A stretch of 32,000 nucleotides of DNA from Ktedonobacterales bacterium (GTDB lineage Bacteria > Chloroflexota > Ktedonobacteria > Ktedonobacterales > JADMIN01). The stretch spans positions 2,430,001-2,462,000 of the forward strand of contig CP126532.1 of NCBI GenBank assembly GCA_030167145.1. The letters run 5' to 3'. Both the position numbers and the translations under genes were made by a program. Positions 4,069-31,374 of the stretch are shown here, piece by piece; the first letter of the stretch is position 1, and the number at the start of each line of letters is the position of its first letter. Under the pieces are notes generated by a model. The model had not been told where the DNA came from, did not search any database, and was given only the letters and a program-made list of their open reading frames with translations.

Positions 4069-4098
4069 TTGACACCGCATTATCTATCACATTATACT
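4069..4098 (+). promoter_or_regulatory. IS-internal promoter for tnpA, TTGACA-N18-TATACT, predicted leaderless mRNA
   Basis: -35 TTGACA at 4069-4074 and -10 TATACT at 4093-4098. The A of ATG 4105 lies exactly 7 nt after the -10. The second element has identical geometry. Confidence 0.45.
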
Positions 4099-4104
4099 GG
4101 TTGC

Positions 4105-4500: not shown

Positions 4501-4503
4501 GGC

Positions 4504-5625
4504 ATGGGGCAGACAGTCCGCAAGACGTACAAGTACCAACTGAACCCAACACCTAAGCAAGAACACGTGTTGGCAAGCGCCTTGTGGCATTGTCGCATGC
4601 TCTACAATACCGCGTTGGAGCAGCGCAAGGCGTGGTGGCAGCGTGGGCAAGGCAAGAGTGCAACCTACTACCAGCAGAAAGCGGAGTTGCCCGACCTGAA
4701 AGCGTCCAGTCCCGAATATGCTGAGGTACATTCACAGGTCTTGCAGGACGTGCTCTTACGGCTTGAGCACACGTTTGCCGCCTTCTTCCAGCGTATCAAA
4801 GACGGGCAGACGCCGGGCTATCCCCGCTTTCAAGGGCAGAACCGCTATCACTCCTTCACCTATCCACAATACGGCAATGGGGCTATGCTGGATGGGGGCG
4901 TGTTAAGTCTGTCGAAGGTCGGGCGTATTCCCGTTCGGCTCCATCGCCCCCTACAAGGTACACCCAAGTCCGTCACGATTTCGCATGAGGCAGATGGCTG
5001 GTATGTCTGCTTCTCGTGCGCTGAGGTGCCCGTACAGCCCTTGCCACTGACTGGCGAAGAGACGGGTATTGATGTGGGGCTGAAGTCCTTCCTGGTGACG
5101 GCGGAGGGGACATTCGTCGAGAACCCACGGCACTATCGCCGCGACGAGAAACGGCTGAAGAAAGCGCAGCGCGTCGTATCGCGGAGGAAGAAAGGCAGTA
5201 ATCGCCGCAAGAAAGCGGTGAAATTACTCGCCAAGCGACACCAGAAGGTGCGGCGGCAACGGCAGGACTTTCACCACAAAACGGCGCTGGCGTTGGTCCG
5301 CCAATACGATGTGATCTATCTCGAAGACTTGCGGGTTCGCAATCTGGTACGCAACCGTCACCTCGCCAAGAGCATCAGCGATGCCGGGTGGACGCAGTTT
5401 CGTATCACACTTGAGTACAAGGCAGCATGCGCCGGTAAACAGGTGATTGCGGTTGAGCCTGCCTACACCTCCCAGGACTGTAGTGGCTGTGGCGCACGGA
5501 TACAAAAGACGCTCTCCGTGCGCACCCATGTCTGCACGTCCTGCGGACTGGTCATGGACCGCGACGAGAATGCGGCCAGAAATATTCTCAGGTTCGGGCA
5601 GAACCTTCGTGGAGCGGTGGCGTAG
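4504..5625 (+). CDS. tnpB: TnpB (IS605 OrfB) RNA-guided endonuclease, RuvC triad intact
   Basis: N-terminus KTYKYQLNPTPKQ. RuvC D in GIDVGLK, E in IYLEDL, zinc ribbon CSGCG..CTSCG, and D in MDRDENAARNI. Confidence 0.9.
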   Translation: MGQTVRKTYKYQLNPTPKQEHVLASALWHCRMLYNTALEQRKAWWQRGQGKSATYYQQKAELPDLKASSPEYAEVHSQVLQDVLLRLEHTFAAFFQRIKDGQTPGYPRFQGQNRYHSFTYPQYGNGAMLDGGVLSLSKVGRIPVRLHRPLQGTPKSVTISHEADGWYVCFSCAEVPVQPLPLTGEETGIDVGLKSFLVTAEGTFVENPRHYRRDEKRLKKAQRVVSRRKKGSNRRKKAVKLLAKRHQKVRRQRQDFHHKTALALVRQYDVIYLEDLRVRNLVRNRHLAKSISDAGWTQFRITLEYKAACAGKQVIAVEPAYTSQDCSGCGARIQKTLSVRTHVCTSCGLVMDRDENAARNILRFGQNLRGAVA

Positions 5626-8866: not shown

Positions 8867-10105
8867 CTAACACGGCACGGGCACATAGGCTTCGATGAGC
8901 GTGGCACCAGCGCCGCCCCGGCTGACGTTACTCGTGCCCACCGCGAACACATCACCCGCCGCATCAGCGCTCACGGCGTTCAAGCTATCCATGTACACGT
9001 TTGCCGGATCGGGCGTGTCGAGCGTGTTCCAGGCTGCGGTTGTGCCGCTCCACGCCTCCGCCAGCGTGCGCTGCATCTGGTCGCTGTCAGTCTGCACACC
9101 CACAGCGACCACGGCTCGCACTGCCGGATCAGACGTGATAGCGTACAGTGAGTTGCTCGTACCAGGAGCGAAACCTGGACTGGTTACCTCGTTCCACCGG
9201 GAGCCATCCCAATGCAGCAGCAGCGGATTGCCGTGATGGCCACCCGCCGCCCACACATCACGAGCCGAGACCGCTGTGACGGCATGCAAAGCGGCCTCAC
9301 CCATAGAATAGGCCATCACCGTCCACCGCGTGCCGTCCCAATGTTCGATCAACGTCGCGCCACTGGTATCCTTGCCGGTGTACATATAGCCCACCGCCCA
9401 GGCGTCGCCGTCCGCAGCGATGGTCACGCTGGATAAGTCGTCTTGCGCGTGGGTGTGGTCCACTATCGGGCCGTTTGGGCTGGGGACGATGCTCCACCGC
9501 GCGCCATCCCACCGTTCGATCAGCGTAGCCTGGGAGGGGATCTGTGGTGAGGATGACGCCTCCCCGTGCGTCGTTGATCCCACCGCCCATGCCGTGCCAC
9601 CCGCCACCGCAACCGCTTGCAAAGCATTATCCACGCCGGGCACATTGGGGCTGGGCACGACCGCCCAACTGGTCCCATCATAGTGCTCGATCAACGTCCG
9701 CCGGTATGCGCTATTGTACCAAATCGCGCTATAGGCGCCGACCGCCCAGATGTCTGTTGCTGAGGCAGCCGCCACGGCGCTCAGACCGCCATACACATTC
9801 GGCCCAGGCACGATGCTCCACGTTGTGCCGTCCCAATGCTCGAACAGCGGCTTGCCACTATACGAAGAGCCAACAGCCCAGGCATCGGTGCGCGAAATAA
9901 CCGCGACACCCTGAAGCGTGTTGTCCGCCGCCACAATGTTGGGGCTGGCTACGATGCGCCATGCGCCGCACTTCGAGGTGGAGGCCGCCAGCGGCGATGC
10001 GTTCCACGGCAGCCGACCATAGCGCGCTTCGCTCACCCCCACAGCAACCACGCCCATCACCACAACCAGCGCCACACACGCCACGATAATCCGGCGACGA
10101 CTCAC
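8867..10105 (-). CDS. Membrane-anchored beta-propeller-like repeat protein
   Basis: N-terminal TM segment IIVACVALVVVMGVVAVGV. Six to seven repeats of the form (F/I)EHWDG..W..VPSPN...L..V......WAVG. GTG start with GGAG 7 nt upstream. Confidence 0.75.
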   Translation of the reverse strand: MSRRRIIVACVALVVVMGVVAVGVSEARYGRLPWNASPLAASTSKCGAWRIVASPNIVAADNTLQGVAVISRTDAWAVGSSYSGKPLFEHWDGTTWSIVPGPNVYGGLSAVAAASATDIWAVGAYSAIWYNSAYRRTLIEHYDGTSWAVVPSPNVPGVDNALQAVAVAGGTAWAVGSTTHGEASSSPQIPSQATLIERWDGARWSIVPSPNGPIVDHTHAQDDLSSVTIAADGDAWAVGYMYTGKDTSGATLIEHWDGTRWTVMAYSMGEAALHAVTAVSARDVWAAGGHHGNPLLLHWDGSRWNEVTSPGFAPGTSNSLYAITSDPAVRAVVAVGVQTDSDQMQRTLAEAWSGTTAAWNTLDTPDPANVYMDSLNAVSADAAGDVFAVGTSNVSRGGAGATLIEAYVPVPC

Positions 10106-10215: not shown

Positions 10216-11421
10216 TCAATGTTCCGGCGTATGCAGCGCGCCTGCAAGCACGATTGGCCCAGTGGGGCTGGGGCTGCCGCCAGCGGGTTCGGGCGTCACC
10301 GCCAGCGTATCGAAGTCGAGCGGCGGCTCGGCGGCATGCACCACGCTCGCGCCGTGCCCATGCGCGTCCAGCGCGAAGAGCGTGTTCGGCTGCGGCTGTC
10401 CTTCGCGCAGCAGCCACACCTGATACGCGCGGTCCGGGGCAAGCCGCGCCAAACCTGCGCTCACCAGCACCCCATCATGCCGCGAGCGCGCGCTGATGAA
10501 CCGTGCATGCGCATCCCGCCCCTGCGCCGTTCCCGGCACATTGACGATCACGCAATCCGGCTCCGCCAGCAGATCGCGCAGCAATTCGCCCGTCACATCA
10601 CGCTCCGCGCGCCTGCCGAAGAGGCCGCGCAAGAAGCCGCCCACGGATGCGCGCGGCTCAGCCGTCTCGGCTTCCGCGTCTGCCATACGTGTCGCTTGCT
10701 CTCCCGGTGCGCTCGCCTCGCCAAGTTCGCCCGCCAGCACCACCGGCCCGGTCGGTCCCGCGCTGCCCGTGAGCGGCTCTGGCGTGACGGCCAGCGTATC
10801 GAAGTCGAGCAGCGGCTCGGATGTGCGTACAACGCTTGCGCCGTGGCCGTGCGGGTCAATCGCGAAAAGCGCGTTAGGTTGCGGCTCACCCCCGCGCAGG
10901 AACCACACCTGATACGCCTTATCCGCCGCCAGCGGCCCCAGCCCCGCCGTCAGCAGCACCCCCTCGCGCCGTGACCGCGCGCCAACGAACCGCGCGCTCG
11001 CGCCCGCCGCGTGCTCCGTTCCCGGCACGTTCACGATCACGCAATCCGGCTCTGCCAGCAGGTCGCGCAATAACTCGCCCGCCAGATCAGCCGCATCCTC
11101 ATCCGCCTCACCGCCCGGCACCGCGCGCACGACATCTCTGGCGGCGTCACCGGCGGCACGCGCGCTCGCCGCTTCCGCGCGGACACGCGCCAGCACGCGC
11201 ACCCGCAGCGCCGGCGGCGTGGCCACCTGGGGCGCGGCCAGCAGCAGCAGATCGGCGCTGGCGCGGGCCTGAGCCAGCAGCGCCCGGCAGCGGGCGCACC
11301 CTTCCACATGCAGATCCACCGCCGCCACCTCCTCCGGCTCCAGCGCGCCGAGGACGAAGGCGTCTATCAGGTCGTCTACGTGTGTCTCTGGTATCTCTGG
11401 TGTCTCTCGCATGTCCATCAT
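10216..11421 (-). CDS. zf-HC2 anti-sigma factor with two tandem RskA-C-like domains
   Basis: N-terminal H-x3-C-x2-C (HVEGCARC). ATGA start/stop overlap with the upstream ECF sigma gene. Two ~118-aa copies contain AYQVW(F/L)LR.G.PQPN.LFA.D.HGHGASVV...DFDTLAVTPEP. Confidence 0.85.
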   Translation of the reverse strand: MMDMRETPEIPETHVDDLIDAFVLGALEPEEVAAVDLHVEGCARCRALLAQARASADLLLLAAPQVATPPALRVRVLARVRAEAASARAAGDAARDVVRAVPGGEADEDAADLAGELLRDLLAEPDCVIVNVPGTEHAAGASARFVGARSRREGVLLTAGLGPLAADKAYQVWFLRGGEPQPNALFAIDPHGHGASVVRTSEPLLDFDTLAVTPEPLTGSAGPTGPVVLAGELGEASAPGEQATRMADAEAETAEPRASVGGFLRGLFGRRAERDVTGELLRDLLAEPDCVIVNVPGTAQGRDAHARFISARSRHDGVLVSAGLARLAPDRAYQVWLLREGQPQPNTLFALDAHGHGASVVHAAEPPLDFDTLAVTPEPAGGSPSPTGPIVLAGALHTPEH

Positions 11422-12023
11422 AGGTATCCGTCCACACCTGCCGCCAGCAATAGCTCGCGCAGGCGCTGCAATCCAACACGAATCCGGCTTTTCACTGTGC
11501 CCAGCGGATCACCCAGCGCGGCGGCGACCTCCGCCTGTGAGAGTCCGCCGAAGAAGGCCAGTTCAATCGCGGCCCGCTGCGCCTCTGGCAGCTTCGCCAG
11601 CGCCGCGCGCACAGCAACGGCGCGTTCACGCAACGCCGCGAGTTGTGCCGGATCGCTCTCGGCGCTCGTATCGGCCAGCGTGGCGCTCTCGGCCTCCCAA
11701 TCGGCGTCGGGCGCGGTGACGGGGCGGCTCTGGCGGCGGCGGATCTCGTTGAGCGCCAGATTGTGCGCGATGCGCAGTAGCCACGTGCTCAGCCGTCCGC
11801 GTTGCGCGTCAAAGCTGGCGGCGCTGCGCCAGAGCCGCACAAACACCTCTTGCGTCAGTTCTTCAGCCGTGGCGCTGTCACGTACAATGCGCAGGCACAG
11901 CGAATATACCGCCTGGCCGAAACGGTCGTAGAGCTGTCCGAGCGCCTCTTCGTCGCCACGCGCGACCCGTTGCGTCAGCAGCAGATCATCGTCTGGCGGC
12001 GAACCCGACTGAGCACTCTCCAC
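11418..12023 (-). CDS. ECF (sigma-70 family group IV) RNA polymerase sigma factor
   Basis: Region 2 (AEELTQEVFVRLWRSAASFD..STWLLRIAHNLALNEIRRR) and region 4 (LPEAQRAAIELAFFGGLSQAEVAAALGDPLGTVKSRI). GTG start with GGAG 6 nt upstream. Confidence 0.9.
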   Translation of the reverse strand: MESAQSGSPPDDDLLLTQRVARGDEEALGQLYDRFGQAVYSLCLRIVRDSATAEELTQEVFVRLWRSAASFDAQRGRLSTWLLRIAHNLALNEIRRRQSRPVTAPDADWEAESATLADTSAESDPAQLAALRERAVAVRAALAKLPEAQRAAIELAFFGGLSQAEVAAALGDPLGTVKSRIRVGLQRLRELLLAAGVDGYL

Positions 12024-12176
12024 GTCTCACTCCAGCTATCTCATATATATACACGTCGCTATGCTGAACAGGTGGACGAAGGCCACGCGCGACAAGCATA
12101 CCATGACGCGCCACCCCGCCCCGCGCACGCGCTATAGTGTTGAGCAGACGCGGGACCACGTTGAAAGGACTACCCC

Positions 12177-13194: not shown

Positions 13195-14061
13195 TCACTC
13201 CCCATCATCGCCAAAGAGTAGCGACTGCTCGGTTGATGAGGCGAGCCGCTTCTGCTCGTCGCGCCTGATCTGCTCAATGCTCTTGGTGGGTGTTGGCAAC
13301 TGCTCAGGGGGTGTGCCGCCCAGGTCTTCGATGGTCTCGCGTACACGCTTGCCCACATCGTAGTGGGTTTGGTTGGCGGCGTCTTTGCCCTGGATGCCCT
13401 CGCGGCGGATCTTCGCTTCGGTCTGCGTAATGCGGAAGAAATTCGCGGCCAACTCTTCGCTGCCCATCCAATCGAGCACTTTCTGCCCGCGCTTCAGCCC
13501 CTTGCGTGCCGCGATGTCCTGCGCCGTCTCGCCGTCGTAGAGGCCACGATAGCCGTGATTCTGAAACGTTGCGAAATCTTGCTGGGTAACGACGCCCGCC
13601 TCATACACGGCGGCAGCCAGATCCACATTGCGCGCGGCGGCTTGGTCGCGCAGCACGATGCGCCGCTGCGCTTCAGTGAGGCCTGTCAGTTCTCCGGCCA
13701 ACTCCGCCCGGCGCGTCTGGATGGCGAAATAGGTCTGACCAAGCGCGACGATGGGCTTCTCTGGGTCCGCGTTCTGCACCACAAGGTAGCAGGCATAGCG
13801 AGACAAATGCCAATCCTCTACTTCACGTATAGCTCCTGAGCCGAGCGTGACCATATTAACATCAGTGTTAAAATGGTCTGTGATGCGCTGGCCGCTGTTC
13901 TCGCATGCAGTCTGTGCGCGCGCAATGACGCCCATGAAGCGCTGCCAGCCACTGTAATCGAGCACCTTTGCCAGCTCACGTGCGCTCCAATACTCGCCGC
14001 CGCCTTCTGCCTCGTGGCGGATCTGCTCAAATGGCGATACACGCTGTGTGTTGTCGCTCAT
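13195..14061 (-). CDS. dinD: DNA-damage-inducible protein D (DinD family)
   Basis: Collinear with my recollection of E. coli DinD: PFEQIRHE..YWSARELAKVLDYS, SRYACYLVVQNADPEKP, GQTYFAIQTRRAEL, FQNHGYRGLY, GSEELAANFFRITQTE, LGGTPPEQLPTP. Start set at ATG 14061 (MSDNTQ, GGGGGAGAGG upstream) rather than the track start at 14130. Confidence 0.9.
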   Translation of the reverse strand: MSDNTQRVSPFEQIRHEAEGGGEYWSARELAKVLDYSGWQRFMGVIARAQTACENSGQRITDHFNTDVNMVTLGSGAIREVEDWHLSRYACYLVVQNADPEKPIVALGQTYFAIQTRRAELAGELTGLTEAQRRIVLRDQAAARNVDLAAAVYEAGVVTQQDFATFQNHGYRGLYDGETAQDIAARKGLKRGQKVLDWMGSEELAANFFRITQTEAKIRREGIQGKDAANQTHYDVGKRVRETIEDLGGTPPEQLPTPTKSIEQIRRDEQKRLASSTEQSLLFGDDGE

Positions 14062-14304
14062 GCCAAACCTCTCCCCCAAGCCCGCCACACGTGAGCGGCC
14101 AAACACAACGGCCACGCGCACCCATCCCATGTGAGAGACAGGTCCACGTGGCCGGAATATCCCAAAACCACTGTGCGAACGTCGTGTCCGTCTGATAGAC
14201 TAGACTCAGGCGTGCCCTGCCAACTTCAGGATGCGCTCAGCGGTCCGGGCAGTGTTACGAGCACTGCGCGGGCCGCGCCCATTTGTGCGGGCTTGTTATG
14301 TACC
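14062..14304 (-). promoter_or_regulatory. Conserved ~240-nt 5' leader of dinD (copy A of a repeated leader)
   Basis: Aligns with 21365-21615. It has a 66-nt 100%-identical core (14095-14160) and further identical blocks, e.g. tctgatagactagactcaggcgtg and caggatgcgctcagcggtccgg. See findings. Confidence 0.6.
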
Positions 14305-14333
14305 AGTATACCATAACGCGATGCGATTGTCAC
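14305..14333 (-). promoter_or_regulatory. Extended -10 promoter GTGACA-N17-(TGG)TATACT, copy A
   Basis: Minus strand reads gtgacaatcgcatcgcgttatggtatact. Near-identical copies lie at 21616-21644 and 22913-22941. Confidence 0.6.
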
Positions 14334-14417
14334 ACACAGAGAATCGTTCAGGGGATGTGCGTGCGTGCCTGCCTCAGTTGCTGGTTTTTTTAGGCAGCCT
14401 GGACATGTAGGGCGTGG

Positions 14418-15197
14418 CTACCTGAACAGCGGCCAGGGAATACCGAGATGTGCCGCCGCAATGTGTAGAATACCGCTGATGATTACCCCTGCCACGAGGA
14501 CGGCCAGGAGCATAGCGCAACCGAACCAGCCGCCCACATATCCGCCGGAAATAGCCGTGGCGTAGGCGAGCGTCGCGCCAACATACACCAGGAAACAACC
14601 GTCAAGCACAAGTGAGAGCACATTCGCCGCGATTGAAATGGCGGGCGCGAACGAGAGCGCGTGAGTTTGCTGAAGCAGCGCGGCGAGGCCGAGTGTGCAA
14701 AGCATAGTCAGCAGCAGCACGCAAACTAGGCCGACCTGTGCGAGCGCCCATGGACGCAATACGCGATAAACACGCGAACCGCTCAAGCGTGGATGCTGGC
14801 GCGGAACGAACAAAGCTGCTACCAGCGCCAGCACCGGCGCGATGAAGATGTAGGCGACCATGTTGCTGAGCGCGACAGTGTAGATATGGGCAGCGGTCGG
14901 GCGTAAAAGATATTCGCCATGATCGAGGGTGAGGCTTGACGTATACAATGTCCCAATACTATTGGCGATGCCCCAGATCGGCGCGCTCACCACAAACGAC
15001 GCAACAACCCACCACCAGCGCGTGATCTGCGCCCATGCGGCCATCGTTCGCGGTGTCGGATGCGTGCCCACATGCCACCAGGCACCCAGCAGCGTTCCGG
15101 TGGCAGGCGCAACTGGCTCGAAGCGGGGTAACGACTGGGATATAGATGCCGCATCACCTTGCGCCGCGCCAGGCCCGCCAGCAATGTTCTGCTCCAT
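14418..15197 (-). CDS. Polytopic integral membrane protein, unknown function
   Basis: Multiple hydrophobic segments. Start set at ATG 15197 (GGAGGTGGAG 5 nt upstream). Confidence 0.7.
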   Translation of the reverse strand: MEQNIAGGPGAAQGDAASISQSLPRFEPVAPATGTLLGAWWHVGTHPTPRTMAAWAQITRWWWVVASFVVSAPIWGIANSIGTLYTSSLTLDHGEYLLRPTAAHIYTVALSNMVAYIFIAPVLALVAALFVPRQHPRLSGSRVYRVLRPWALAQVGLVCVLLLTMLCTLGLAALLQQTHALSFAPAISIAANVLSLVLDGCFLVYVGATLAYATAISGGYVGGWFGCAMLLAVLVAGVIISGILHIAAAHLGIPWPLFR

Positions 15198-15268
15198 GCA
15201 CACTCCACCTCCACAGTAGCAACCTATCTGTTCCATCCCATTATCACCGCCGTGTCAACACCGCCCGC

Positions 15269-15574
15269 TCAGGGGGATTCCACCGCGATGGCGACACCGA
15301 AAATCGCATGTTTGCCAACCCAGCCGTTGATGCCACCACGATTGTTGCCGATGAGATAGCGGTCGCCCTGGATCGCTTTGATGAGATGCAAATACTCAGC
15401 GCCATGCATCCGCACCAGCACCACGTCGCCTACACGGAGCGTCACAGGATCGCAGGGCGCGACCGTCACGCGGTCCCCGGAGTTGATCTTGCCGCGCATC
15501 GAGTGGCCGCGCGGGCGTAGCTGAACCGTCTCGCCACGGCGCAACGCTTCGCAAGAATGCGTTGCCCACCCCAT
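15269..15574 (-). CDS. Stand-alone S24 (LexA/UmuD-like) peptidase-fold protein, 101 aa
   Basis: PRGHSMRGKINSGDRVTVAP....GDVVLVR..G.EYLHLIKAI..DRYLIGNN parallels G(D)SM.P.I..GD.V.V....GD.V......K of S24 domains. GGAGGAG lies 7 nt upstream of the ATG. No DNA-binding domain. Confidence 0.5.
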   Translation of the reverse strand: MGWATHSCEALRRGETVQLRPRGHSMRGKINSGDRVTVAPCDPVTLRVGDVVLVRMHGAEYLHLIKAIQGDRYLIGNNRGGINGWVGKHAIFGVAIAVESP

Positions 15575-15578
15575 GATG

Positions 15579-15875
15579 CTACTCCTCCATCGTTGCGGTA
15601 TCCATCACCACATCGGTGATCTCCACGTCCGGGCGCGACTCCTCGATGTAGCGCACCGCGTGATCGAGCACCTCCTGCGCGTGGCCGCGCTCGCCGCTAA
15701 CGTAGGCCAGCCCCAGCACGGCAATCTGCCACATATCCTGGCGATCTACCTCCGCCGCTGATACCGCGAACTCGTTGCGCAGCTTCGCCAGCAGCGAACG
15801 CACCACCTGCCGTTTGTCTTTGAGCGACGCGCTCAGCGGAATCCGCAGCGTCACCCGGCACATGCTCACATACAT
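15579..15875 (-). CDS. DUF503 (YlxP-like) protein
   Basis: MYVSMCRVTLRIPLSASLKDKRQVVRSLLAKLRNEFAVSAAEVDRQDMWQIAVLGLAYVS matches the DUF503 pattern. Start moved to Met8 of the track ORF. Confidence 0.8.
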   Translation of the reverse strand: MYVSMCRVTLRIPLSASLKDKRQVVRSLLAKLRNEFAVSAAEVDRQDMWQIAVLGLAYVSGERGHAQEVLDHAVRYIEESRPDVEITDVVMDTATMEE

Positions 15876-15920
15876 CGCATTCTCGCCGATGCCCACAGCG
15901 TTCCGGCGGCATCGTGCCGG

Positions 15921-16922
15921 TTATGGCGTCGCCTCGCCCAGTGTTTCAGCGGGCGCGGCGCGCGCCGAACGTATCACCAGCAGCAGGCTCAGCGCGATCA
16001 GCGCGCCACCTGCCACCGTCGCCCACGTCAGCGTATCATGCACGAGCCAGACCGCCAGCGCCGCGCCCAGTAGCGGCTGCACGAACAGCGTCGGCGCGGC
16101 TGCCGAGGCGTCCAGCACAGCGAGCGCGCGGAACCACAGCCAGTACGCCAGAGCCGTCGCGATGCCCGCCATATACAGCACCGCCAGCCACCCCGCCAGC
16201 GGCAGATGCGGCCAGCCGCTCTGCGACACCGCCATCGCACCAGCGGGCAGCCAGAAAGCCAGACTCACCGTGATCGTCACGCTGGTAAAGAGCAATGGCG
16301 ACACCGCGCCGAGCGCCGCTTTGCCGCGCACCGTGTAGCCCGCCTCCAGCAGCAGCGAGAGGACCACCAGCAGATCCCCCGCGATGCGCGCACCCTCCGC
16401 GCCGCTGCCCCCCAGGTGCGGCGCCAGCCCGCGCTCGACGACCAGGTACGCGCCCGCCAGCCCCAGCGCCAGCGCCGCGATGCCCATCCGCGTCACCCGC
16501 TCGCGCAGCAGCAGCCACGAGAGCATCGCCGTGAAGAGCGATTCGGTGGAGATCAGCAGCGCCACATCCGAGGCCGTCGAGAGCGCAAGGCCGAAATATT
16601 CGAAGAGCTTGTTCAGAATCCAGCCTAACAATACCGCGCTGCCCAGCGCCAGCAGCGTGCGCCGGTCGCGCGGGATGCGCCGCCAGCCGCGTAGCAACAC
16701 CGGCGAGAGCAGCAGCGCCGCCAGCGAAAGGCGCAGCGCATTCAACTGCACCGGCGAGAGGTAGACCAGCGCAATCTTCGCGGCGGAATACGTTCCCGCC
16801 CACAGCGCATTCGCCAAAATCAGTAGCAGGAACGCCCGGCGCTGTGTTCGCGCAGCGCCACGCGCCACTTTCGCCGCCGTCACGCCAGTGCTCGCCGCCA
16901 CGCGCATCGCTCCCCCATGCAC
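15921..16922 (-). CDS. DMT-superfamily (EamA) transporter
   Basis: About ten hydrophobic helices. EamA-like N-terminus LLILANALWAGTYSAAKIAL. Start uncertain (16922 or 16907). Confidence 0.8.
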   Translation of the reverse strand: MHGGAMRVAASTGVTAAKVARGAARTQRRAFLLLILANALWAGTYSAAKIALVYLSPVQLNALRLSLAALLLSPVLLRGWRRIPRDRRTLLALGSAVLLGWILNKLFEYFGLALSTASDVALLISTESLFTAMLSWLLLRERVTRMGIAALALGLAGAYLVVERGLAPHLGGSGAEGARIAGDLLVVLSLLLEAGYTVRGKAALGAVSPLLFTSVTITVSLAFWLPAGAMAVSQSGWPHLPLAGWLAVLYMAGIATALAYWLWFRALAVLDASAAAPTLFVQPLLGAALAVWLVHDTLTWATVAGGALIALSLLLVIRSARAAPAETLGEATP

Positions 16923-17046
16923 ATATCACAATCACGCCCGCGAACACCAACCGTTTGTCGCGGGCGCATGAGGATAGTGTACGCGATGGCGGCACGCACC
17001 GCCCACAGAGCGGGACTTCCCCGCCCCTGGCGCACATCACTTCTCG

Positions 17047-18954
17047 CTAGCCAGTGGGCGCATGCTCCGTCAGCGCCGCGCCGCAGACCGGGCAGAAGTG
17101 CGCGGACGGATCGCTGACCGGGTGCCCATTCGCGCAGACGCGCACCGCTGCGCCCACCAGTGGTGGCGGTGTGGGTGTACCTGACTGCGGTGGCCCGGAT
17201 GGCGGCGCAGGCGCAGGTGATACCGGTGGCTGTTGCGCCGCGCGATACTCCGGCGAAGGCGGCTGCGCGGGCGACGGATATGCGGGCGGCTGGCCCACTG
17301 GCTGCGACGGCTGTGGAATGTATGCGGGCGGCGCGGATGGCGGATATCCCTGCTGTGGCGGCGTGGCTGGTGGTGGCACGTAGGGCACGCCAGGTGGTGT
17401 CGCAGGCTGGCCATACGGACCGCCATACGGCTGCGAAGGTGGCGTGGGCTGCGCGTATTGCCCTGCTGCCTCCGGTGGCGTGGGTGCAGGCGTGGTAGGT
17501 GTTGGCGTCGGCATGACTTGCGCGCCATACGGGGGATACGGCGGCGCATTGCCCGGCAGCGTAATCGGGCCGCTGTACTGCTGCGCCCGTGGTTCCGATC
17601 CATAGCCGCCGAAACCGCCATAGCCCACCGGAGCCGTCGCTGGGGCCATCTTGCGGCGGTTCAAGAACAGGAATAGCCCCACACCCCCTGCCGCCAGCAG
17701 CAACAACAGCGCGCCGCCGCCGATCAGCAGCCCCGTGCCGAGTCCGCCAGCCGCCACCGGACACTCGCCCGGTGTCACTTTCGCCTTCGCCGCGCGCAGA
17801 TACTCGTTCACGCCTCCAAATGCCGGGTAGTTACTCTGAATGGTGGTCAGGTCTTTCGTGGCGTTGGTCCAGTGGCAGGCGCCGGTCGCGTGATACTCGG
17901 TGATCGCCTTCGTCCACAGCGGCATGAAGGCGCCCGCGGTCGGTTTCTCTACGCCAGCCTGGCGCGTATACTCGGCGGCGACACTGCTGGGAATCAGGAA
18001 GACTACCCGCTCCGTCGAAGTCCCCGCATCCACGAAGCCGATAATCTTGCCCGCACCGTCAATCACCGGGCCGCCGCTCGACCCATGCGAGCCGATGCCG
18101 TTGGTTTCGTAGACCTGCGTGCCGTCGCTCAAGGTCTTCTGCGACGTGACTGCGCCAGTATTCACCGAAACGCTCAGCAGGCTGTTGATCGTATTCACGT
18201 CGCTCTGGGTTGGATTGAAGAGGCTGGTGAAATCGCCCGTATCCGCATCGCCGGGGTAGGCGACAGCCGTCACGCTATCCTGCACATGCACCGCGCTCGC
18301 CGGAGCCAGTGTCAGGTACGGCATGTTGGTGGCTTCCACCTTCACGATGGCCGTATCCTGCTTATCCACCGGCGAGTTCGCGACGATGCGTGTCACCGCG
18401 TAGCCCGTCACCTGGGCGCTATTCTGAAGCTGGCCGGTGTAGGCGGTGGAGAGGAAGGCTTTCTGCCCTGTGACCTGGATGTTGAGTTGGATCTGGTTCG
18501 CGTGGTCCTGGATGAACGTCGTCGCGGTATCCTGCGAGACGTTGTATTGCTGCTCCAAATCCGTGACGACCTGTTGCAGAATGAACGTGGTGTCAACTGG
18601 GTTGTTCACCGTGTGATCCACCACGTGATCCGCCGTGAGGATGTAGCCGTCCGATGAGACGAACGCGCCCGACCCCGTCACCGCGTACTCGAAAGCTCCC
18701 TGCGCGGGTGAGACGATAGTCGAGCCGTCATTGCCGCAGTTCGGGCAGACAAACTGCGCCTGAATATCCGAGACAATGCGCACCACCGCCGGACTCGCCA
18801 GATCCACCGCCAGCGTATCCGTGGTATCCAGCGGACGCGCCTGGGCGGCGGGCGCACCGCTCAGCGCCGGGAACAGCGCCAGCCCCAGCAGCAGAACAAG
18901 CGCCAGCAGCGCAGAGGGCCGCGCTCGTGACCGCTGTATGTCGTTGCCAAACAT
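17047..18954 (-). CDS. Membrane-anchored trypsin-like (S1/Trypsin_2) serine protease with a cytoplasmic Pro/Tyr/Gln-rich tail and C-terminal zinc ribbon
   Basis: Signal peptide ALLALVLLLGLALFPALSGAPAAQA, His context ILTADHVV, Ser context GSHGSSGGPV, TM segment LLIGGGALLLLLAAGGVGLFLFL, a long PPY/PQ-rich region, then C-terminal CANGH..FCPVCG. Start at ATG 18954; the upstream 333 codons of the track ORF are antisense to purK. Confidence 0.85.
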   Translation of the reverse strand: MFGNDIQRSRARPSALLALVLLLGLALFPALSGAPAAQARPLDTTDTLAVDLASPAVVRIVSDIQAQFVCPNCGNDGSTIVSPAQGAFEYAVTGSGAFVSSDGYILTADHVVDHTVNNPVDTTFILQQVVTDLEQQYNVSQDTATTFIQDHANQIQLNIQVTGQKAFLSTAYTGQLQNSAQVTGYAVTRIVANSPVDKQDTAIVKVEATNMPYLTLAPASAVHVQDSVTAVAYPGDADTGDFTSLFNPTQSDVNTINSLLSVSVNTGAVTSQKTLSDGTQVYETNGIGSHGSSGGPVIDGAGKIIGFVDAGTSTERVVFLIPSSVAAEYTRQAGVEKPTAGAFMPLWTKAITEYHATGACHWTNATKDLTTIQSNYPAFGGVNEYLRAAKAKVTPGECPVAAGGLGTGLLIGGGALLLLLAAGGVGLFLFLNRRKMAPATAPVGYGGFGGYGSEPRAQQYSGPITLPGNAPPYPPYGAQVMPTPTPTTPAPTPPEAAGQYAQPTPPSQPYGGPYGQPATPPGVPYVPPPATPPQQGYPPSAPPAYIPQPSQPVGQPPAYPSPAQPPSPEYRAAQQPPVSPAPAPPSGPPQSGTPTPPPLVGAAVRVCANGHPVSDPSAHFCPVCGAALTEHAPTG

Positions 18955-19293
18955 GATGCCGTATCCTTCCCCGTAGCGGATGAGTCTACAAAGCATGCGT
19001 CCGCACTTCTGGCGGAGACCACCCCGGCGCTCTCCATGCTCGGATTCCAGGCATACGCTACACGATTCCAAACAAAGCGGTATGACGCGGCTGACAGCGC
19101 GCCCAACAGCGCGAAAGGAGGGCGCTCGCAGCATATATGCCACCGCCCGCGCGTACACACGGACGCGGCGTGGGCAATTATGCTGAGCGCGCGGAACCTG
19201 TGCTATGATGTCTCGCTGGGTATAGCGGAAGCATGATGAGAAGTGGAGTATCAGGTGAGCAGCCAGCGAACAGCAGCAGAACCAGCCGCACGC

Positions 19294-20439
19294 ATGAGTC
19301 TGCCCTATCCGGGACGCATTGGCATTCTCGGTGGTGGGCAACTCGCCCGTATGACCGCTGAGGCTGCCTCGCGCCTGGGCCTGGAAGTGGCGATTCTGGA
19401 GCGCGAGCCGGGCAGCCCCGCCGCGCGTATCGCCGCCCGCGAGGTCGTCGGCGCGTGGGATGACCGTGCGAAGCTGGCGGACCTGGCGGCGGATACGCTG
19501 GTCGTGACCCTCGAAAACGAGTTCGTAGACGCCCCCGCGCTGGCAGAACTGGCCGCGACGGGCGTTCCTGTCTTCCCCACGCCCCATACCCTGGCCACTG
19601 TGCAAGACAAACTGGAACAGAAGCGCTTCATGCGCGCGGCGGGCGTGCCAGTGCCAGAGTTCATCGAGGTCACGTCGCCCGACGATATCGCGCATGCGAC
19701 GGAAGAGTGGGGCTGGCCGCTCGTGCTGAAGGCGCGGCGCAACAGCTACGACGGCTACGGCAACGCGACACTGCATGCGGCGGACGAGGTCGCCCCCGCC
19801 TGCGAACGCCTGGGCTGGCCGCAGCGTCAGTTGTTCGCCGAGGCGTGGGTGCCCTTCACGCGCGAGCTGGCGGTGATGGTTGCGCGTGGGCGGAGCGGCG
19901 CAACGGCGGTCTATCCCGTCGTGGAGACCGTGCAGCGCAATCATATCTGCCACATCGTGCGCGCCCCCGCACCCATAGCTCCGGCGGTGGCTGCTCGCGC
20001 GGCGGAGATCGCGCGCATGGCGGTCGCGGCCATTGACGGCATCGGCGTTTTCGGGGTCGAGCTATTCGAGAGCGAAGATGGCCGCGTGCTCTACAACGAA
20101 ATCGCGCCGCGCCCGCACAATTCCGGCCACTACACCATCGAGGGCTGCGTCACGTCGCAGTTCGAGAACCATCTGCGCGCCGTGCTTAGCCTGCCGCTCG
20201 GCAGCACAGAGATGGTTGCGCCCGCCGCCGTCATGGTCAATCTGCTCGGCGCCCGTGAAGGCCCTGCCCACGCCGATGGCATCGCCGACGCGCTGGCAGT
20301 CCCTGGCGCGCACCTGCACATCTACGGCAAGCTCATCTCACGCTCTGGCCGCAAGATGGGCCACATCACCGCCCTTGCCACAACCCTCGCCGAAGCCGAA
20401 GCCCGCGCGCAGGCAGCAGCGGACGCGATCACGCTGTGA
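19294..20439 (+). CDS. purK: N5-carboxyaminoimidazole ribonucleotide synthase
   Basis: RIGILGGGQLARM N-terminus, ATP-grasp body, and NEIAPRPHNSGH motif. The start could instead be GTG 19255 or 19243. Confidence 0.9.
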   Translation: MSLPYPGRIGILGGGQLARMTAEAASRLGLEVAILEREPGSPAARIAAREVVGAWDDRAKLADLAADTLVVTLENEFVDAPALAELAATGVPVFPTPHTLATVQDKLEQKRFMRAAGVPVPEFIEVTSPDDIAHATEEWGWPLVLKARRNSYDGYGNATLHAADEVAPACERLGWPQRQLFAEAWVPFTRELAVMVARGRSGATAVYPVVETVQRNHICHIVRAPAPIAPAVAARAAEIARMAVAAIDGIGVFGVELFESEDGRVLYNEIAPRPHNSGHYTIEGCVTSQFENHLRAVLSLPLGSTEMVAPAAVMVNLLGAREGPAHADGIADALAVPGAHLHIYGKLISRSGRKMGHITALATTLAEAEARAQAAADAITL

Positions 20440-20452
20440 CCATTGCTATCCG

Positions 20453-21364
20453 CTAGTTGTCTGGTGTGCCAGTTGCGCTGCCCGGCTCAGCGGCAAAGAG
20501 TTGTGGTTGTTTCGCGCTGGCCGTCAGGCTCTTCGCATTCTCGCTGCTCACCACTGGGCGGCCTGTCTCGGCTTCGATCTGCTGGCGCGCCGAGCCAGCA
20601 ATCTCCCCAGCCTTCTGCGCGTCCCCCTGCAACTCGATGAATCCTTGGCTATCGTGCGCTTGATGCAACGCCGTCGCGGTCGCCTCAGAGAGCATCGTCA
20701 GCGCCAATTCCAGCGAGGTCATATTGTCGCGCAGATTCTCGCGCGGCTTCAACTGCTTGATCTGCTTATGCTCGTTCGTAGAAGCATCGAACGCGCCACG
20801 ATGCAAAATCTCGGAGAGGACGGCGAACTCGCGTCCCTCCTCAGCGCCCCGGTCGCGCCACTCGGTCGTCAGGTCGTCGCGCACCGTGATGCCCCGCAAG
20901 CGCAGTTCGATCCATTCCTCGTCGTAGCCGCGTTTGCGGTAGAGCAGCCGCAACGAGTCCGCCGCCACACGCGGATTGTCGAGCTCTTCCAGCCGTTGCA
21001 CGCCAACCCGCGCCAACCATTGCTTGAACGGCTCAGCCTTCGGCGACGGAATGCTCTGGATGATGCGCAGCAGCGTCTCCGTATCCGCCGCATCGGTCAG
21101 CCGCTGTTTGCCGTCAAGCGCTGCCATTTTCAACTGTTGGCATTTTGCCAACACTTCAACAAACCCTTCGTCTTGAATCCGCCGCTTCATATCGGCCCAA
21201 TACATCCGGGGCTTGGGCGTGTCGGTCAGCAGCCCCACGACATCAATCACACTGAAGAACCACCGCCCCTCGTGCCACACCCGCCGTACTTGCTGCTCCG
21301 CCTGCTCGTCGAGCAGATCCAACCCCATCGCGTCGTTCCGGTCATCATCGCTGTTGTTGGTCAC
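20453..21364 (-). CDS. Bro-N domain protein with DinD-like C-terminal module (DinD paralog)
   Basis: Bro-N: VRRVWHEGRWFFSVIDVVGLLTD...AEPFKQWLARVGVQRLEE. C-terminal: YRKRGYDEEWIELRLRGI..LRDNMTSLELALTMLSE, parallel to the DinD C-terminal region. GTG start at 21364 with GAGGAGGG 7 nt upstream. Confidence 0.8.
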   Translation of the reverse strand: MTNNSDDDRNDAMGLDLLDEQAEQQVRRVWHEGRWFFSVIDVVGLLTDTPKPRMYWADMKRRIQDEGFVEVLAKCQQLKMAALDGKQRLTDAADTETLLRIIQSIPSPKAEPFKQWLARVGVQRLEELDNPRVAADSLRLLYRKRGYDEEWIELRLRGITVRDDLTTEWRDRGAEEGREFAVLSEILHRGAFDASTNEHKQIKQLKPRENLRDNMTSLELALTMLSEATATALHQAHDSQGFIELQGDAQKAGEIAGSARQQIEAETGRPVVSSENAKSLTASAKQPQLFAAEPGSATGTPDN

Positions 21365-21615
21365 GCGAAGACCCTCCTCAAGCCCACCAGCCACAGGCGG
21401 CCAAACACAACGGCCACGCGCACCCATCCCATGTGAGAGACAGGTCCACGTGGCCGGAATATGCTCGATACCCCAAATACCTCTGTGCGAACGCCGCGTC
21501 TATCTGATAGACTAGACTCAGGCGTGTCCTGCTTCTTCCAGGATGCGCTCAGCGGTCCGGCAGTGCGTCCAACACTGGTCGGGCCGCGCCCATGTGTGTA
21601 AGCTTGTCGTAGGCC
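21365..21615 (-). promoter_or_regulatory. Conserved ~250-nt 5' leader (copy B of the repeated leader)
   Basis: Aligns with 14062-14304. The 66-nt identical core is at 21397-21462. Confidence 0.6.
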
Positions 21616-21644
21616 AGTATACCATAACACGATGCAATTGTCAC
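21616..21644 (-). promoter_or_regulatory. Extended -10 promoter GTGACA-N17-(TGG)TATACT, copy B
   Basis: Minus strand reads gtgacaattgcatcgtgttatggtatact. Confidence 0.6.
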
Positions 21645-21710
21645 TGGTTGAAAACTGGCCAGATAGCGTGAGAGCGAGCGATTTTCACCTGTTGGATTTC
21701 TACCAACAGT

Positions 21711-22565
21711 TCACCGCTGACGCCGCTGCTCAGCAGCCGCTATCCGCGCACGGAACCACGACGCCACCCGCAGCCACTCATTCTCCGCAATGTCACTGTA
21801 TTTGCCAACGTGAAACGCTTCGTTCAGCTCGCCATAGATCGTGGCGTAGGCGCTACCCGTCAGCTCGCTCAGCCGTCTCGCCGACGCCTTCACCGTCGCC
21901 TGATGCTCCGGCGTCAGCGTTTGTGGTCCTAGCCGGTCGAGAATCTCCGGCACCAACCGCGTAATCTCTTCGACGCTCTCCAACCGGCTTTCCACCGACC
22001 CACGCCACCGCTCGATATCCGCCTGCCAGTCTATGTATGCGAGCATCCCTTGATGGTATGCGCGCCAGGCTGAAAGCGGCGCGCCCTCGCCCGGCGCTTC
22101 CGGCTGGGTGATCGGGTCGGCGGGTACGAGATTCACGGGCGTAGGCAGTTCGGCCCGCGGCTGCGAAAAGTGACGATAGAGCACATCGGCGGCCTCGCGA
22201 CGGAATGCTCGAATCGCCGCACGCTTCTCTGCGGTAAGTTTACCCGTCCGCACACCAGTGAGCCAAAGCGGAATCCCCCATGCTGCCAGTACATCCATTG
22301 CCTGCGTCTCGCCGGTCAGGTTATCAGCCACAAGCGCGAACAGAAGGTGATCGGCAAGCACGTCGTCGGTACGGATACGCCGAGCCTGCGATGCGCGATC
22401 TAAGTCCAGTGCGGTACAGAGGTCAGTAAGTACCGCCGCGATGCTGCCATCAGGCAATCGTACCGCGCGTATGTCATGCCCGTAGAAGGTTACGACATCG
22501 CTTGCCAAAGGTTGAACCACCTGTCCGTTGCTCTGCCCTGGCTGCCCGTTTCCATTTTCATTCAC
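21711..22565 (-). CDS. Phage antirepressor-type protein (P22_AR_N-like N-terminus, ORF6C-like C-terminus)
   Basis: VVTFYGHDIRAVRLPDGSIAAVLTDLCTALDLDRASQARRI..IPLWLTGV..KRAAIRAFRREAADVLYRHF, then C-terminal YATIYGELNEAFHVGKYSDI. GTG start at 22565 with AGGAG 8 nt upstream. Confidence 0.75.
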   Translation of the reverse strand: MNENGNGQPGQSNGQVVQPLASDVVTFYGHDIRAVRLPDGSIAAVLTDLCTALDLDRASQARRIRTDDVLADHLLFALVADNLTGETQAMDVLAAWGIPLWLTGVRTGKLTAEKRAAIRAFRREAADVLYRHFSQPRAELPTPVNLVPADPITQPEAPGEGAPLSAWRAYHQGMLAYIDWQADIERWRGSVESRLESVEEITRLVPEILDRLGPQTLTPEHQATVKASARRLSELTGSAYATIYGELNEAFHVGKYSDIAENEWLRVASWFRARIAAAEQRRQR

Positions 22566-22912
22566 GGTTCTCGCTCCTATCCTCCACAACAATCAGACAG
22601 CAGTCATTTTGACTGCTGGTAGCTCGCTATACCATGCCAAGCCAGACAATACAAGGCTTTCCCCAAGGGTCTATCATGGGGAGTACATGTCTGCACGCCT
22701 CCTCCTGGGATATGGAGACGCTGAAGTGAGGAATCGGATCGGGGGAAAGCAGAGATGCCTGCGGCTTGGGCCTGCGATGTCAGATGAGTCTATGCTATTG
22801 CCCGTGCCGCATGCTATGCTGCTACAAGCCCTGTCCGCTGCTACCGTCAGCGCCGGGGTCAGAGCGCCGTTCGTGTTGTCAGCACGGACGGCGTTCGCAC
22901 ATTGATGTGGCA

Positions 22913-22941
22913 AGTATACCATAACGCGATGCGATTATCAG
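22913..22941 (-). promoter_or_regulatory. Third copy of the shared promoter (CTGATA-N17-(TGG)TATACT)
   Basis: Minus strand reads ctgataatcgcatcgcgttatggtatact. The spacer is identical to copy A. It overlaps the stop codon of the upstream FAD oxidoreductase gene. Confidence 0.5.
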
Positions 22942-30206: not shown

Positions 30207-30420
30207 ACACGGGACATAATCACCGTGACTACTCTCCCGCATACATGCGGGAGCTTCTAGGAGCAAGCCCCAAGGTGTGTAGCCCCACACCTAAAATGTT
30301 CAGACTGGCGTTGAAATCACGGTCGAGAACCACCCTGCAGCAGGGGCAGGTATAGATGCGGTCTGCAAGGGAGAGCGGTTGCCGATGTCCACACTGCGAG
30401 CAATCTTGACTGGTATACGC
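30207..30420 (-). ncRNA. Predicted omega-RNA of the second TnpB (scaffold overlaps the tnpB 3' end; guide acggtgattatgtcccgtgt)
   Basis: By analogy with characterised systems. A perfect 8-bp hairpin at 30234-30253 lies inside the last tnpB codons. The guide is the 16-20 nt beyond the inferred right end (30226 downward). The 5' end was not determined. Confidence 0.35.
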
Positions 30421-31374
30421 GGGGTTCACTGCCACATACTTTCGACCGGCCCATGCTGCCTTGTACGAGAGGGTGGCGGCGAACTGACTCCACGCCGCGT
30501 CATGAATGCTCTTGGCGAGACAATGGTTGTGCATCATCCGGTTGACCGACAAATCTTCGACGGCGATGAGGTCGAAGCCATCAACGATACGGCGGCTGTG
30601 CTGGTGGGCGAAGTCGCTCCGTCGCCATCGAATCCGCTCATGCACCCGCGCTACCACCTTGCGCCGCGTGGCGCGCTCCGATGTGCCCTTTTCTTCCTTG
30701 CTGAGACGCCGCTGTACCTTCGCCAGAACCGTTTCTTCGGCACGGAAGAAACGCGGGTTAGCGATTTCCAGCCCAGTCGAGAGCGTGGCAAAGGTCTTCA
30801 AGCCCACATCAATCCCCACCTGCTGCCCGATCTCTGGCAGTGGGGGTGGCTCAGCACATTCACACGAGAAGCAGACATACCATTTGCCGGTACTGCTGCG
30901 GCTGATCGTCGCCGTCTTGGCTGTGCCTTCCCATTGGCGATGGAGTACGATCTTTACCAAGCCGACGCCATGCAACCGCAGACGCCGCGCATCCGCATCC
31001 AGCGTGCAGCCTACTGGCACCTGGGGATAGGTGAGGCTGGCGTAGCGCCCCTGGCCGCGAAAGCGCGGATAACCAGGTTCTCGCTCACCGGCCTTCATAC
31101 GGCGGAAGAACGCCTGAAACGCCAAGTCAATGCGGACCGCGACATTCTGCAACACCTGCGATTGGACACTAGCCAGTGTGGGTCGCTCAGCTTTGAGCAC
31201 AGGCAATGTCGCCTGCTGGTCGTAGAGGCGCAGCGATTCTTGCCGCTGCTCCCAGGCGTCGCGCCGGGCAGCCAGCAGTTCATTGTAGAGCCAGCGGCAC
31301 TCCTCAAGCTGCTGTGCGAGGAGGCGCTGCTGCTGCTTGGTCGGGTACAAGCGGTACTTAAACGTCTTACGCAT
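30229..31374 (-). CDS. tnpB: TnpB (IS605 OrfB) RNA-guided endonuclease, RuvC triad intact
   Basis: MRKTFKYRLYPTKQQ, GIDVGLK, IAVEDL, CSQCG..CPCC, LDRDFNASLNI. Confidence 0.9.
   Translation of the reverse strand: MRKTFKYRLYPTKQQQRLLAQQLEECRWLYNELLAARRDAWEQRQESLRLYDQQATLPVLKAERPTLASVQSQVLQNVAVRIDLAFQAFFRRMKAGEREPGYPRFRGQGRYASLTYPQVPVGCTLDADARRLRLHGVGLVKIVLHRQWEGTAKTATISRSSTGKWYVCFSCECAEPPPLPEIGQQVGIDVGLKTFATLSTGLEIANPRFFRAEETVLAKVQRRLSKEEKGTSERATRRKVVARVHERIRWRRSDFAHQHSRRIVDGFDLIAVEDLSVNRMMHNHCLAKSIHDAAWSQFAATLSYKAAWAGRKYVAVNPAYTSQDCSQCGHRQPLSLADRIYTCPCCRVVLDRDFNASLNILGVGLHTLGLAPRSSRMYAGE

Follow-up and report, generated by a model that had tools for sequence, protein, structure and literature searches.

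Phage antirepressor (ant) genes are classically controlled by leader or antisense RNAs, as in the cases of P1 c4 and P22 sar, and dinD of Escherichia coli is a LexA-regulated SOS gene whose product has been reported to modulate RecA filaments. Bacterial chromosomes very commonly encode DinD, Bro-N and Ant-like proteins, which are also listed as phage-defence candidates; beyond E. coli very little is understood of their cellular role and regulation, and in the library searched, literature searches for DinD with Bro-N, for the defence candidate PDC-S13 and for Ktedonobacter antirepressors returned nothing relevant and no paper naming PDC-S13. Here, three such genes are described, together with the long leaders that precede them, from a stretch of 32,000 nucleotides (nt) of a Ktedonobacterales bacterium (assembly GCA_030167145.1, contig CP126532.1, positions 2,430,001 to 2,462,000), which is called the window below. 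A first-pass annotation, made from the letters alone, had put the three genes forward as a candidate co-regulated module with a shared promoter, a shared box and possibly a dedicated leader RNA or operator. The explanation which we consider probable on balance is a new cis-regulatory leader RNA, attenuator or riboswitch-like, that co-controls dispersed DinD, Bro-N and P22_AR_N genes. Those of the window are:

13195..14061, minus strand: gene 1, dinD homologue, 288 amino acids (NCBIfam NF008573, Pfam Bro-N, PADLOC)
20453..21364, minus strand: gene 2 (OJF49_002341), Bro-N with a DinD-like C-terminal part, 303 amino acids (Pfam, PADLOC, profile-profile comparison)
21711..22565, minus strand: gene 3 (OJF49_002342), P22_AR_N antirepressor-like, 284 amino acids, GTG start (Pfam, PHROG)

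The structured leader and its copies

The leaders comprise ~230-340 nt in total, and the first ~115 nt, starting just after the -10 box, form a structured domain. Seven distinct copies of it are found in three genomes, and it is as this covarying structured element that the dedicated leader RNA of the first-pass annotation is recovered. The copies of the window, scored with a covariance model of the element (R1), are:

14172..14285, minus strand: structured 5′ domain of the gene 1 leader, type A, with hairpins P1, P2 and P3 (98.2 bits)
21484..21596, minus strand: structured 5′ domain of the gene 2 leader, type A (92.3 bits); its 3′ end is CGGCGTTCGCACA at 21484-21496
22791..22905, minus strand: structured 5′ domain of the gene 3 leader, type B (105.3 bits); its 5′ end, UGUGCGAACGCCG, is the exact complement of the gene 2 box

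Two more copies lie on the same 5.07-Mb contig, one ~450 kb off before a second DinD paralogue (locus L003) and one ~70 kb off before a second P22_AR_N paralogue (L013), and two belong to other Ktedonobacterales (L022 in GCA_036376595.1; L018-L021 in JGI metagenomes), both located before P22_AR_N orthologues. The unit is not a local three-gene module: the set is dispersed, and its members ~70 kb and ~450 kb away are paralogues with another promoter. All seven copies are on the strand of the gene, have a -10 box TAyACT 11-25 nt upstream of a conserved start AYGKGCG, and precede DinD, Bro-N or P22_AR_N genes. The leaders of genes 1 and 2 are referred to as type A, those of gene 3, L003, L013, L018 and L022 as type B; the two types align significantly, in forward orientation, over the first ~110 nt. 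Leader similarity cuts across the gene families: the leaders of L003 (DinD) and L013 (P22_AR_N) are 91% identical over 115 nt, and those of genes 1 and 2, whose proteins are almost unalignable (29% identity over 77 amino acids, E 0.011, BLASTP), are ~84% identical over the 249 nt upstream. As leader similarity does not track gene similarity, leaders, or the open reading frames (ORFs) behind them, have been exchanged between loci, and the leader fold has been kept by selection.

Across the seven sequences RNAalifold finds three hairpins, P1, a two-part P2 and P3, and a short enclosing helix. Compensatory changes are frequent; 14 of the 29 pairs change on both sides, versus 1-5 when the partners are slid, and the covariation score is 0.43, versus at most 0.11 with partners slid by 1-3 columns. 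In the alignment 90.4% of the cells are paired, versus 73.0% in column shuffles, and not one of 500 shuffles reaches the observed value. The P1 stem of L018 and L022 has a wholly different sequence and is still paired, and copies of different genomes have diverged to ~60% column identity with the structure retained; the element thus has what is asked of a riboswitch aptamer, a conserved structure backed by covariation. Single-sequence folds are more stable than those of shuffles (z -2.8 to -6.1; for gene 3 see below).

The element is also specific. Model R1 scores the seven copies at 87-116 bits and the best other match in 190 kb, both strands counted, at 22 bits. In ~95 kb of the window genome, a sample centred on the paralogues, for which regions alone the statistic is valid, it stands before five of the six members of these families and before none of 83 other genes (Fisher p 1.4e-7). 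None of the 4227 families of Rfam 15 matches the window at gathering thresholds, and at the leader positions of the window, L003, L013, L018 and L022 nothing appears at E<=10, 5 or 1 except one antisense SymR match at chance level (30 versus 61 bits). The element is absent before the P22_AR_N orthologue L015, which lies next to helix-turn-helix (HTH) genes. In that organism (L015, 4248-8227) the closest P22_AR_N orthologue stands, leaderless, behind small HTH_3 genes and near a TIR_2 protein, possibly in a prophage or defence region.

Some other readings of the conserved segment were tried and set aside. It does not code for protein: indels between copies break the reading frames, including those of the small ORFs of type A (gene 1 versus gene 2). 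The peptides of the type-B upstream ORFs are not conserved; between L003 and L013 they share ~38% of amino acids versus ~78% of nucleotides (hand count). An antisense RNA was rejected: the sub-threshold SymR and ctRNA matches of the plus strand did not recur in the four other leaders examined, and forward homology together with hairpins accounts for the likeness of gene 3 to the reverse complement of gene 1. Core patterns of types A and B gave only chance coding matches in viral_contigs.

Proposed expression platforms of type B

The 5′ strand of P2, GGCGCUGN, has two partners that are conserved throughout the five type-B leaders, a local CAGCG (5-6 base pairs, bp) and a distal N'CAGCGYC (8-12 bp). 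The latter follows the P2 strand at a distance of ~100-130 nt, and covariation is seen at its eighth pair (A-U, G-C, U-G). The distal element of gene 3, L003 and L013 continues straight into a hairpin, GCGYCUCC/GGAGRCGU, in which a Shine-Dalgarno sequence is hidden, and an AUG comes 8-9 nt after that sequence; in L022, the simplest relative, the antirepressor gene itself supplies the Shine-Dalgarno sequence and the AUG behind the distal site. For gene 3 the features are:

22674..22723, minus strand: distal CAGCGUC (22717-22723), alternative partner of the P2 strand GGCGCUGA (22847-22854), followed by a hairpin sequestering the Shine-Dalgarno sequence GGAGGCG and by a 4-codon upstream ORF (22674-22688, minus strand)
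22588..22618, minus strand: terminator-like hairpin CAGCAGUCAAAAUGACUGCUG with UCUGAUUGUU, called by a scanner, 33 nt before the GTG start

Judged from the sequence, the type-B arrangement resembles the layout of a translational RNA switch. The upstream ORF behind the type-B domain has 57 codons in L003 (9829-10003), 39 in L013 and 4 in gene 3, and gene 3 has a second promoter-like sequence, TGGTATAGC, ~75 nt before its start. In L003 the upstream ORF ends at a UGA which overlaps the GUG start of the second dinD (GUGA), and translational coupling is possible there. In L013, the space from the type-B leader to the second P22_AR_N start contains 2.2 tandem copies of a 70-nt unit (9849-10002), each with a hairpin (GGCTAGAAAT..CTAGCC, GGGG..CCCC).

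Proposed expression platforms of type A

Genes 1 and 2 carry a different predicted platform, a long hairpin of 19 bp with a U-rich tail, situated ~40-100 nt before the start codon:

14099..14153, minus strand: long hairpin of gene 1, GGCCACGUGG...CGCGUGGCC, with the U-rich tract GUUGUGUUUGG, terminator-like
21401..21455, minus strand: long hairpin of gene 2 with U-rich tract, identical to that of gene 1
14077..14087, minus strand: 3′ strand of the closing helix of gene 1, directly upstream of the Shine-Dalgarno sequence, pairing with 14284..14295 (ACAAGCCCGCAC)

As this U-tailed hairpin precedes the start codon, transcription attenuation is suggested for type A. The U-rich tract GUUGUGUUUGG can also pair with an upstream CGGACACGAC, and all four substitutions of that upstream strand between genes 1 and 2 keep the pairing. 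Between the same two genes the closing helix shows one compensatory change (G-C to A-U) and two half-compensatory ones; since it joins the extreme 5′ end to the sequence before the Shine-Dalgarno and has a compensatory change, the full-length type-A leader would fold as one unit. Over 8 bp, the P2 strand of type A could pair with GGGUGCGC on the 3′ side of the long hairpin, and for this reason an antiterminator is possible; the complementarity is not unique.

An AUG in the loop of the long hairpin, with no Shine-Dalgarno sequence before it, opens an ORF. In gene 1 this ORF (AUG at 14130) runs in frame into dinD, which explains why the public annotation gives the gene 311 amino acids from the upstream ATG at 14130; the start used here, for 288 amino acids, agrees with the N-terminus of the family and is preceded by the Shine-Dalgarno sequence GGGGGAGAGG. 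In gene 2 the corresponding ORF (21432-21362, minus strand) is ended by a UGA that overlaps the GUG with which the gene begins (GUGA).

Promoters and the box

A 24-mer, AATCGCATCGCGTTATGGTATACT, occurs on the minus strand at 14305-14328, 21616-21639 and 22913-22936 with 0, 2 and 0 mismatches, where by chance none is expected. One copy stands before each gene, and a promoter scan reads all three as gTGACA-17-TATACT with an extended -10:

14305..14333, minus strand: promoter P_A of gene 1, -35 GTGACA, 17-nt spacer, extended -10 TGgTATACT; its 24-mer is that of gene 3
21616..21644, minus strand: promoter P_A of gene 2, with 2 mismatches in the 24-mer
22913..22941, minus strand: promoter P_A of gene 3, -35 CTGATA; 24-mer identical to that of gene 1

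The unusual shared promoter seen by the first-pass annotation is thus real and is not shared by further genes within the ~95 kb covered of the same genome; no more copies of AATCGCATCGCGTTATGGTATACT are present in 94.6 kb. In public collections a 20-mer of it gave one chance match (a Planctomycete, genome_contigs) and none in metagenome_contigs or viral_contigs; the genome of the window itself is evidently outside these collections, and the scans predate the cross-species consensus. Only the extended -10 part of AATCGCATCGCGTTATGGTATACT resembles another promoter, that of an operon for an extracytoplasmic function (ECF) sigma factor and its anti-sigma factor, whose promoter region carries a similar extended -10 (GTCATGGTATGCT); this suggests that TGGTATnCT is simply the local style of -10. 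The leader-bearing paralogues of L003 and L013 use a promoter other than P_A, CGCCCGC..TG(T)GCTAyACT, which is common to three genomes (L018 2630-2663, L022 2750-2781, L003 9595-9624, L013 9325-9354). Conservation of the spacer therefore extends to these type-B promoters, with a sequence unlike that of P_A in the window genes.

The box CGTTCGCACA, which had been regarded as common to the three genes, indeed has three exact matches in the window; with one mismatch allowed its count is not above that of shuffles. In genes 1 and 2 it lies at ~+150 of the leader; the match of gene 3, at ~+8, is on the other strand and at the 5′ end of the leader, and from the other four leaders the box is absent. 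As the site in gene 3 is inverted and non-homologous, the box is no operator that the three genes share at one position.

14172..14181, minus strand: CGTTCGCACA box of gene 1, predicted unpaired, in the large internal loop of the type-A leader

In its extended form in the gene 2 leader, CGGCGUUCGCACA of the internal loop (21484-21496), the box is perfectly complementary over 13 nt to UGUGCGAACGCCG at the 5′ end of the gene 3 leader (22889-22901); the gene 1 leader has 10 nt of this complementarity and the other four leaders have none. The 13 nt could stand for an RNA-RNA contact or for a DNA site that works in either orientation.

A single regulator of the three genes, as the first-pass annotation had it, may be conceived from these common signals. 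Induction of the genes by DNA damage or phage would be expected only by analogy with E. coli dinD. A LexA-type box, GAAC-N4-GTTC, is absent from the three promoters and leaders and is as frequent in the window as in shuffles, so that no enrichment is seen, although the LexA motif proper to the lineage may differ. A palindrome resembling the radiation/desiccation response motif (RDRM), GTTATG-N11-CATAAC, occurs only in gene 1 and was judged a chance match.

The genes and their families

Gene 1 belongs to the DinD equivalog: it scores 374.8 bits on NF008573 (cut-off 242), its residues 5-275 covering profile positions 7-279 of 288, a full-length match above the curated cut-off. It reaches the gathering score of Pfam Bro-N (PF02498; 33.7 bits versus 25.6, 5.6e-8), as does gene 2 (34.4 bits, 3.6e-8), and the two match different models of PADLOC PDC-S13, PDLC04919 (1e-107) and PDLC04920 (2e-107), respectively. 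Gene 2 obtains just 17.1 bits on NF008573 and is not a member of the equivalog; given this score and a profile-profile comparison with the DinD family (hhalign, E 4e-4 over 251 columns), it is a distant relative of DinD. At least ~8,000 homologues were scored in each of the DinD and Bro-N searches. Gene 3 is above the gathering score of P22_AR_N (PF10547; 52.5 bits versus 30.7, 6.5e-14) and matches phrog_524, "anti-repressor Ant", at 6e-11; it has no PADLOC match. The P22_AR_N family shows no similarity to the two others in profile comparison (E 0.4). Hence the gene identities first proposed are right as to DinD, Bro-N with a DinD-like part, and P22_AR_N, whereas the ORF6C domain (PF10552) assigned to gene 3 stays below threshold (14.7 bits versus 22). 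For none of the three proteins is there a sequence relative in the PDB.

Some P22_AR_N homologues (P0247, P0309) are fused to a GIY-YIG nuclease domain, and a PADLOC model for a Type I restriction "specificity subunit" (PDLC03083) has its N-terminal 275 residues matched by the DinD-like region. Both are a hint, at the level of domain matches, that these proteins might serve as DNA-targeting modules.

Genomic context

The three genes match phage-associated PHROG families (8036, 15286 and 524), and each stands alone between housekeeping genes, with gaps of 13-85 nt and a G+C content of 0.59-0.61, slightly below that of the flanks. Both points of the first-pass annotation, phage-type genes in isolation and no integrase, capsid or terminase, withstood the searches for the 32-kb window, and a degraded-prophage context was not found. 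The neighbours are confirmed as purK, a trypsin-like protease, EamA, DUF503, UvrB, a DAO oxidoreductase and a radical-SAM protein, and they also include an NMT1/THI5-like and a DinB_2-like protein. The window has no tRNA gene, the other usual marks of a prophage (attachment (att) sites, structural or lysis genes) were not found, and the other ORFs tested have no PHROG match. The 20-kb neighbourhoods of two other loci of the same genome contain no further phage-family gene, and none of the five loci of this genome adjoins a repressor gene or an immunity region. The statement that there is no prophage thus holds for the window, whose remaining features include:

10216-12107, minus strand: ECF sigma / zf-HC2 anti-sigma pair
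~4087-5625 and 30229-31374: two IS200/IS605-family elements (Y1 TnpA with TnpB; a second TnpB)
~3668-3886: HicB-like antitoxin gene

Directly upstream of gene 1 and on its strand, a stand-alone S24-like peptidase domain of ~100 amino acids (15269-15574, minus strand; GHSM...K motif; Pfam 1e-5) is followed by the gene of an unannotated multi-pass membrane protein (14418-15236, minus strand). A dispersed hairpin repeat of ~24 nt, CCGCGAArCCCGCCTrCGCGGGyT, with sub-threshold CRISPR-DR28 matches, was seen in L003 (4751-4774, 20847-20870) and L013 (16811-16834), and does not occur in the window.

Proposed mechanism and alternatives

In the model that we favour, a strong sigma-70-type promoter would drive each gene, and the transcript would open with a long 5′ leader (~230-340 nt) whose first ~115 nt would fold into the conserved three-hairpin domain P1-P3 and act in cis as an RNA switch. 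The 5′ strand of P2 would pair in two mutually exclusive ways, locally (GGCGCUG/CAGCG) or with a distal sequence of the expression platform; in type B the distal CAGCGYC adjoins, or would join in, the hairpin hiding the Shine-Dalgarno sequence, and in type A the platform would be the long U-tailed hairpin before the start codon. A signal, be it a small molecule, a protein or another RNA, which stabilizes one of the folds would set the expression of the dispersed genes together, and the identical promoter of the three window genes may add a second layer of common control at the level of DNA. What we observe directly is the set of copies, where they are placed, how they covary and that the alternative pairing is conserved; from these we infer an action as RNA in cis, a direction of the switch and a signal. 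A bolder form of this model is possible, though we find it rather doubtful: the ~115-nt domain would be the sensor of an undescribed riboswitch-like class, by which one signal (possibly phage or DNA damage) governs DinD, Bro-N/DinD-like and P22_AR_N genes through translational and transcriptional platforms, with the 13-nt contact between the leader of gene 3 and those of genes 1 and 2 as an additional link.

Several observations weigh against a leader RNA with this role. The element is absent upstream of the Bro-N paralogue L010 in the window genome and before the DinD/Bro-N orthologues L004, L006 and L012 of other Ktedonobacterales. The seven sequences represent only ~four lineages, so that independent compensatory events are few; P2 is invariant, and its local form is therefore not probed by covariation. 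The z-score of the gene 3 leader is only -1.7, and L018 lacks the Shine-Dalgarno hairpin. For the antiterminator of type A there are only two sequences, identical in the relevant segments, with several other partners of 6-9 bp; as these are of similar length, the pairing is inferred. Transcription start sites, termination and the switch are predictions throughout. The known range is narrow, and a degenerate core pattern, fitting the five copies then known, has no match in metagenome_contigs and viral_contigs, a weak negative because the L018 and L022 copies, found later, would not fit it.

The regulation might lie in the DNA alone, with one transcription factor, a repressor, binding the promoter spacer and the TGTGCGAACG box and the leader fold being without function. 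That the 17-nt spacer is (near-)identical in the three window genes, whereas sigma-70 spacers normally drift, that the type-B promoters share CGCCCGC..TGyGCTAyACT over three genomes, and that the box of gene 3 is at +5 to +17, a classic repressor-roadblock position, would all fit; but conservation of a DNA site predicts neither helices kept by compensatory changes nor a P1 of entirely different sequence yet paired in L018 and L022, the box is missing from four of seven leaders and in genes 1 and 2 comes ~150 nt after the start of the transcript, and the spacer is no palindrome, having just a short direct repeat (ATCGC-ATCGC). We regard control by DNA alone as unlikely; layers of DNA and of RNA are not mutually exclusive. 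It is likewise improbable that the 5′ domain is the gene of an independent, trans-acting small RNA which ends at the terminator-like hairpin, the downstream gene being reached by read-through or from a promoter of its own. U-tailed hairpins do part domain and gene in all three window loci, TGGTATAGC could be such a promoter for gene 3, and the complementarity of the gene 3 leader to those of gene 2 (13 nt) and gene 1 (10 nt) could mean RNA-RNA contact in trans. However, in L022 the distal partner of P2 adjoins the ribosome-binding site of the gene itself with no terminator between, the type-A closing helix with its compensatory change implies one full-length folding unit, and the element invariably stands right before a gene of these families, in the same orientation.

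Inter-locus recombination is required by leaders that do not track gene phylogeny, the genome has IS200/IS605 elements, and the P_A promoter was found only at three neighbouring genes; the similarity could on these grounds be the relic, devoid of regulatory meaning, of a recent duplication, a gene conversion or a small mobile element carrying a promoter. Recombination accounts for the spread of the leaders but not for the conservation of their structure, which the cross-genome copies keep at ~60% column identity; relative to genes of these families all seven copies are oriented and placed alike, and none was found elsewhere, and model R1 detects no similarity to the IS605 copies of the window or to its HicB-like gene. 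A mere relic is accordingly very unlikely. Most improbable by far is a degraded prophage with the promoters of a phage immunity region as shared signals: the three families do occur in phages (PHROG), where ant genes are classically under leader or antisense RNAs (P1 c4, P22 sar), yet no other phage-family gene and no tRNA accompanies the window genes, nor is there such a gene in the 20-kb surroundings of the two other loci, and the genes stand singly among housekeeping genes, with narrow gaps and a G+C content barely below the flanks. Compared with a cis-regulatory leader RNA, all four of these alternatives are less consistent with the covariation, the fixed placement and the L022 arrangement.

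Comparison with known systems

With regard to phage defence, genes 1 and 2 are like PADLOC PDC-S13 in that they match two of its models; PDC-S13, though, is only a candidate, and no recognisable defence island surrounds the genes. Gene 1 resembles E. coli dinD in passing the DinD equivalog threshold over its full length, and departs from it in having no LexA-type box at the promoter, its control apparently being exerted via a long structured leader that is common to non-DinD families. Such a dedicated covarying leader over three families is a concrete handle on these proteins, as the trigger of the RNA would be the signal which the genes answer to.

The likeness to the immI region of phages P1 and P7 (c4 RNA - icd - ant) and to sar/ant of P22 consists in an antirepressor-type gene behind a long leader proposed to control translation or termination, and in a short, perfect complementarity between leaders (13 nt, gene 3/gene 2). 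Unlike immI, the present genes are chromosomal and solitary, are not part of an immunity operon, and an antisense promoter is not supported; P1 c4 (RF01695) is contained in the Rfam library searched and matches neither in sequence nor in structure.

In contrast to known riboswitches, the element matches no family of Rfam 15 and its known range is three Ktedonobacterales genomes; the genes are neither metabolic nor transport genes, and their context therefore points to no ligand. Should there be a ligand, the element would represent a new riboswitch class, from a phylum that has been little studied. What the element shares with riboswitch and attenuator leaders is its location immediately behind the predicted start of transcription, a domain of several covarying hairpins, a strand for which two alternative partners are conserved, and a downstream hairpin that either hides the Shine-Dalgarno sequence (type B) or is terminator-like (type A), that is, one sensor domain with two kinds of platform. 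Recombined with different promoters, platforms and coding regions, this one domain may be a compact example of how a regulon is assembled by moving a leader cassette.

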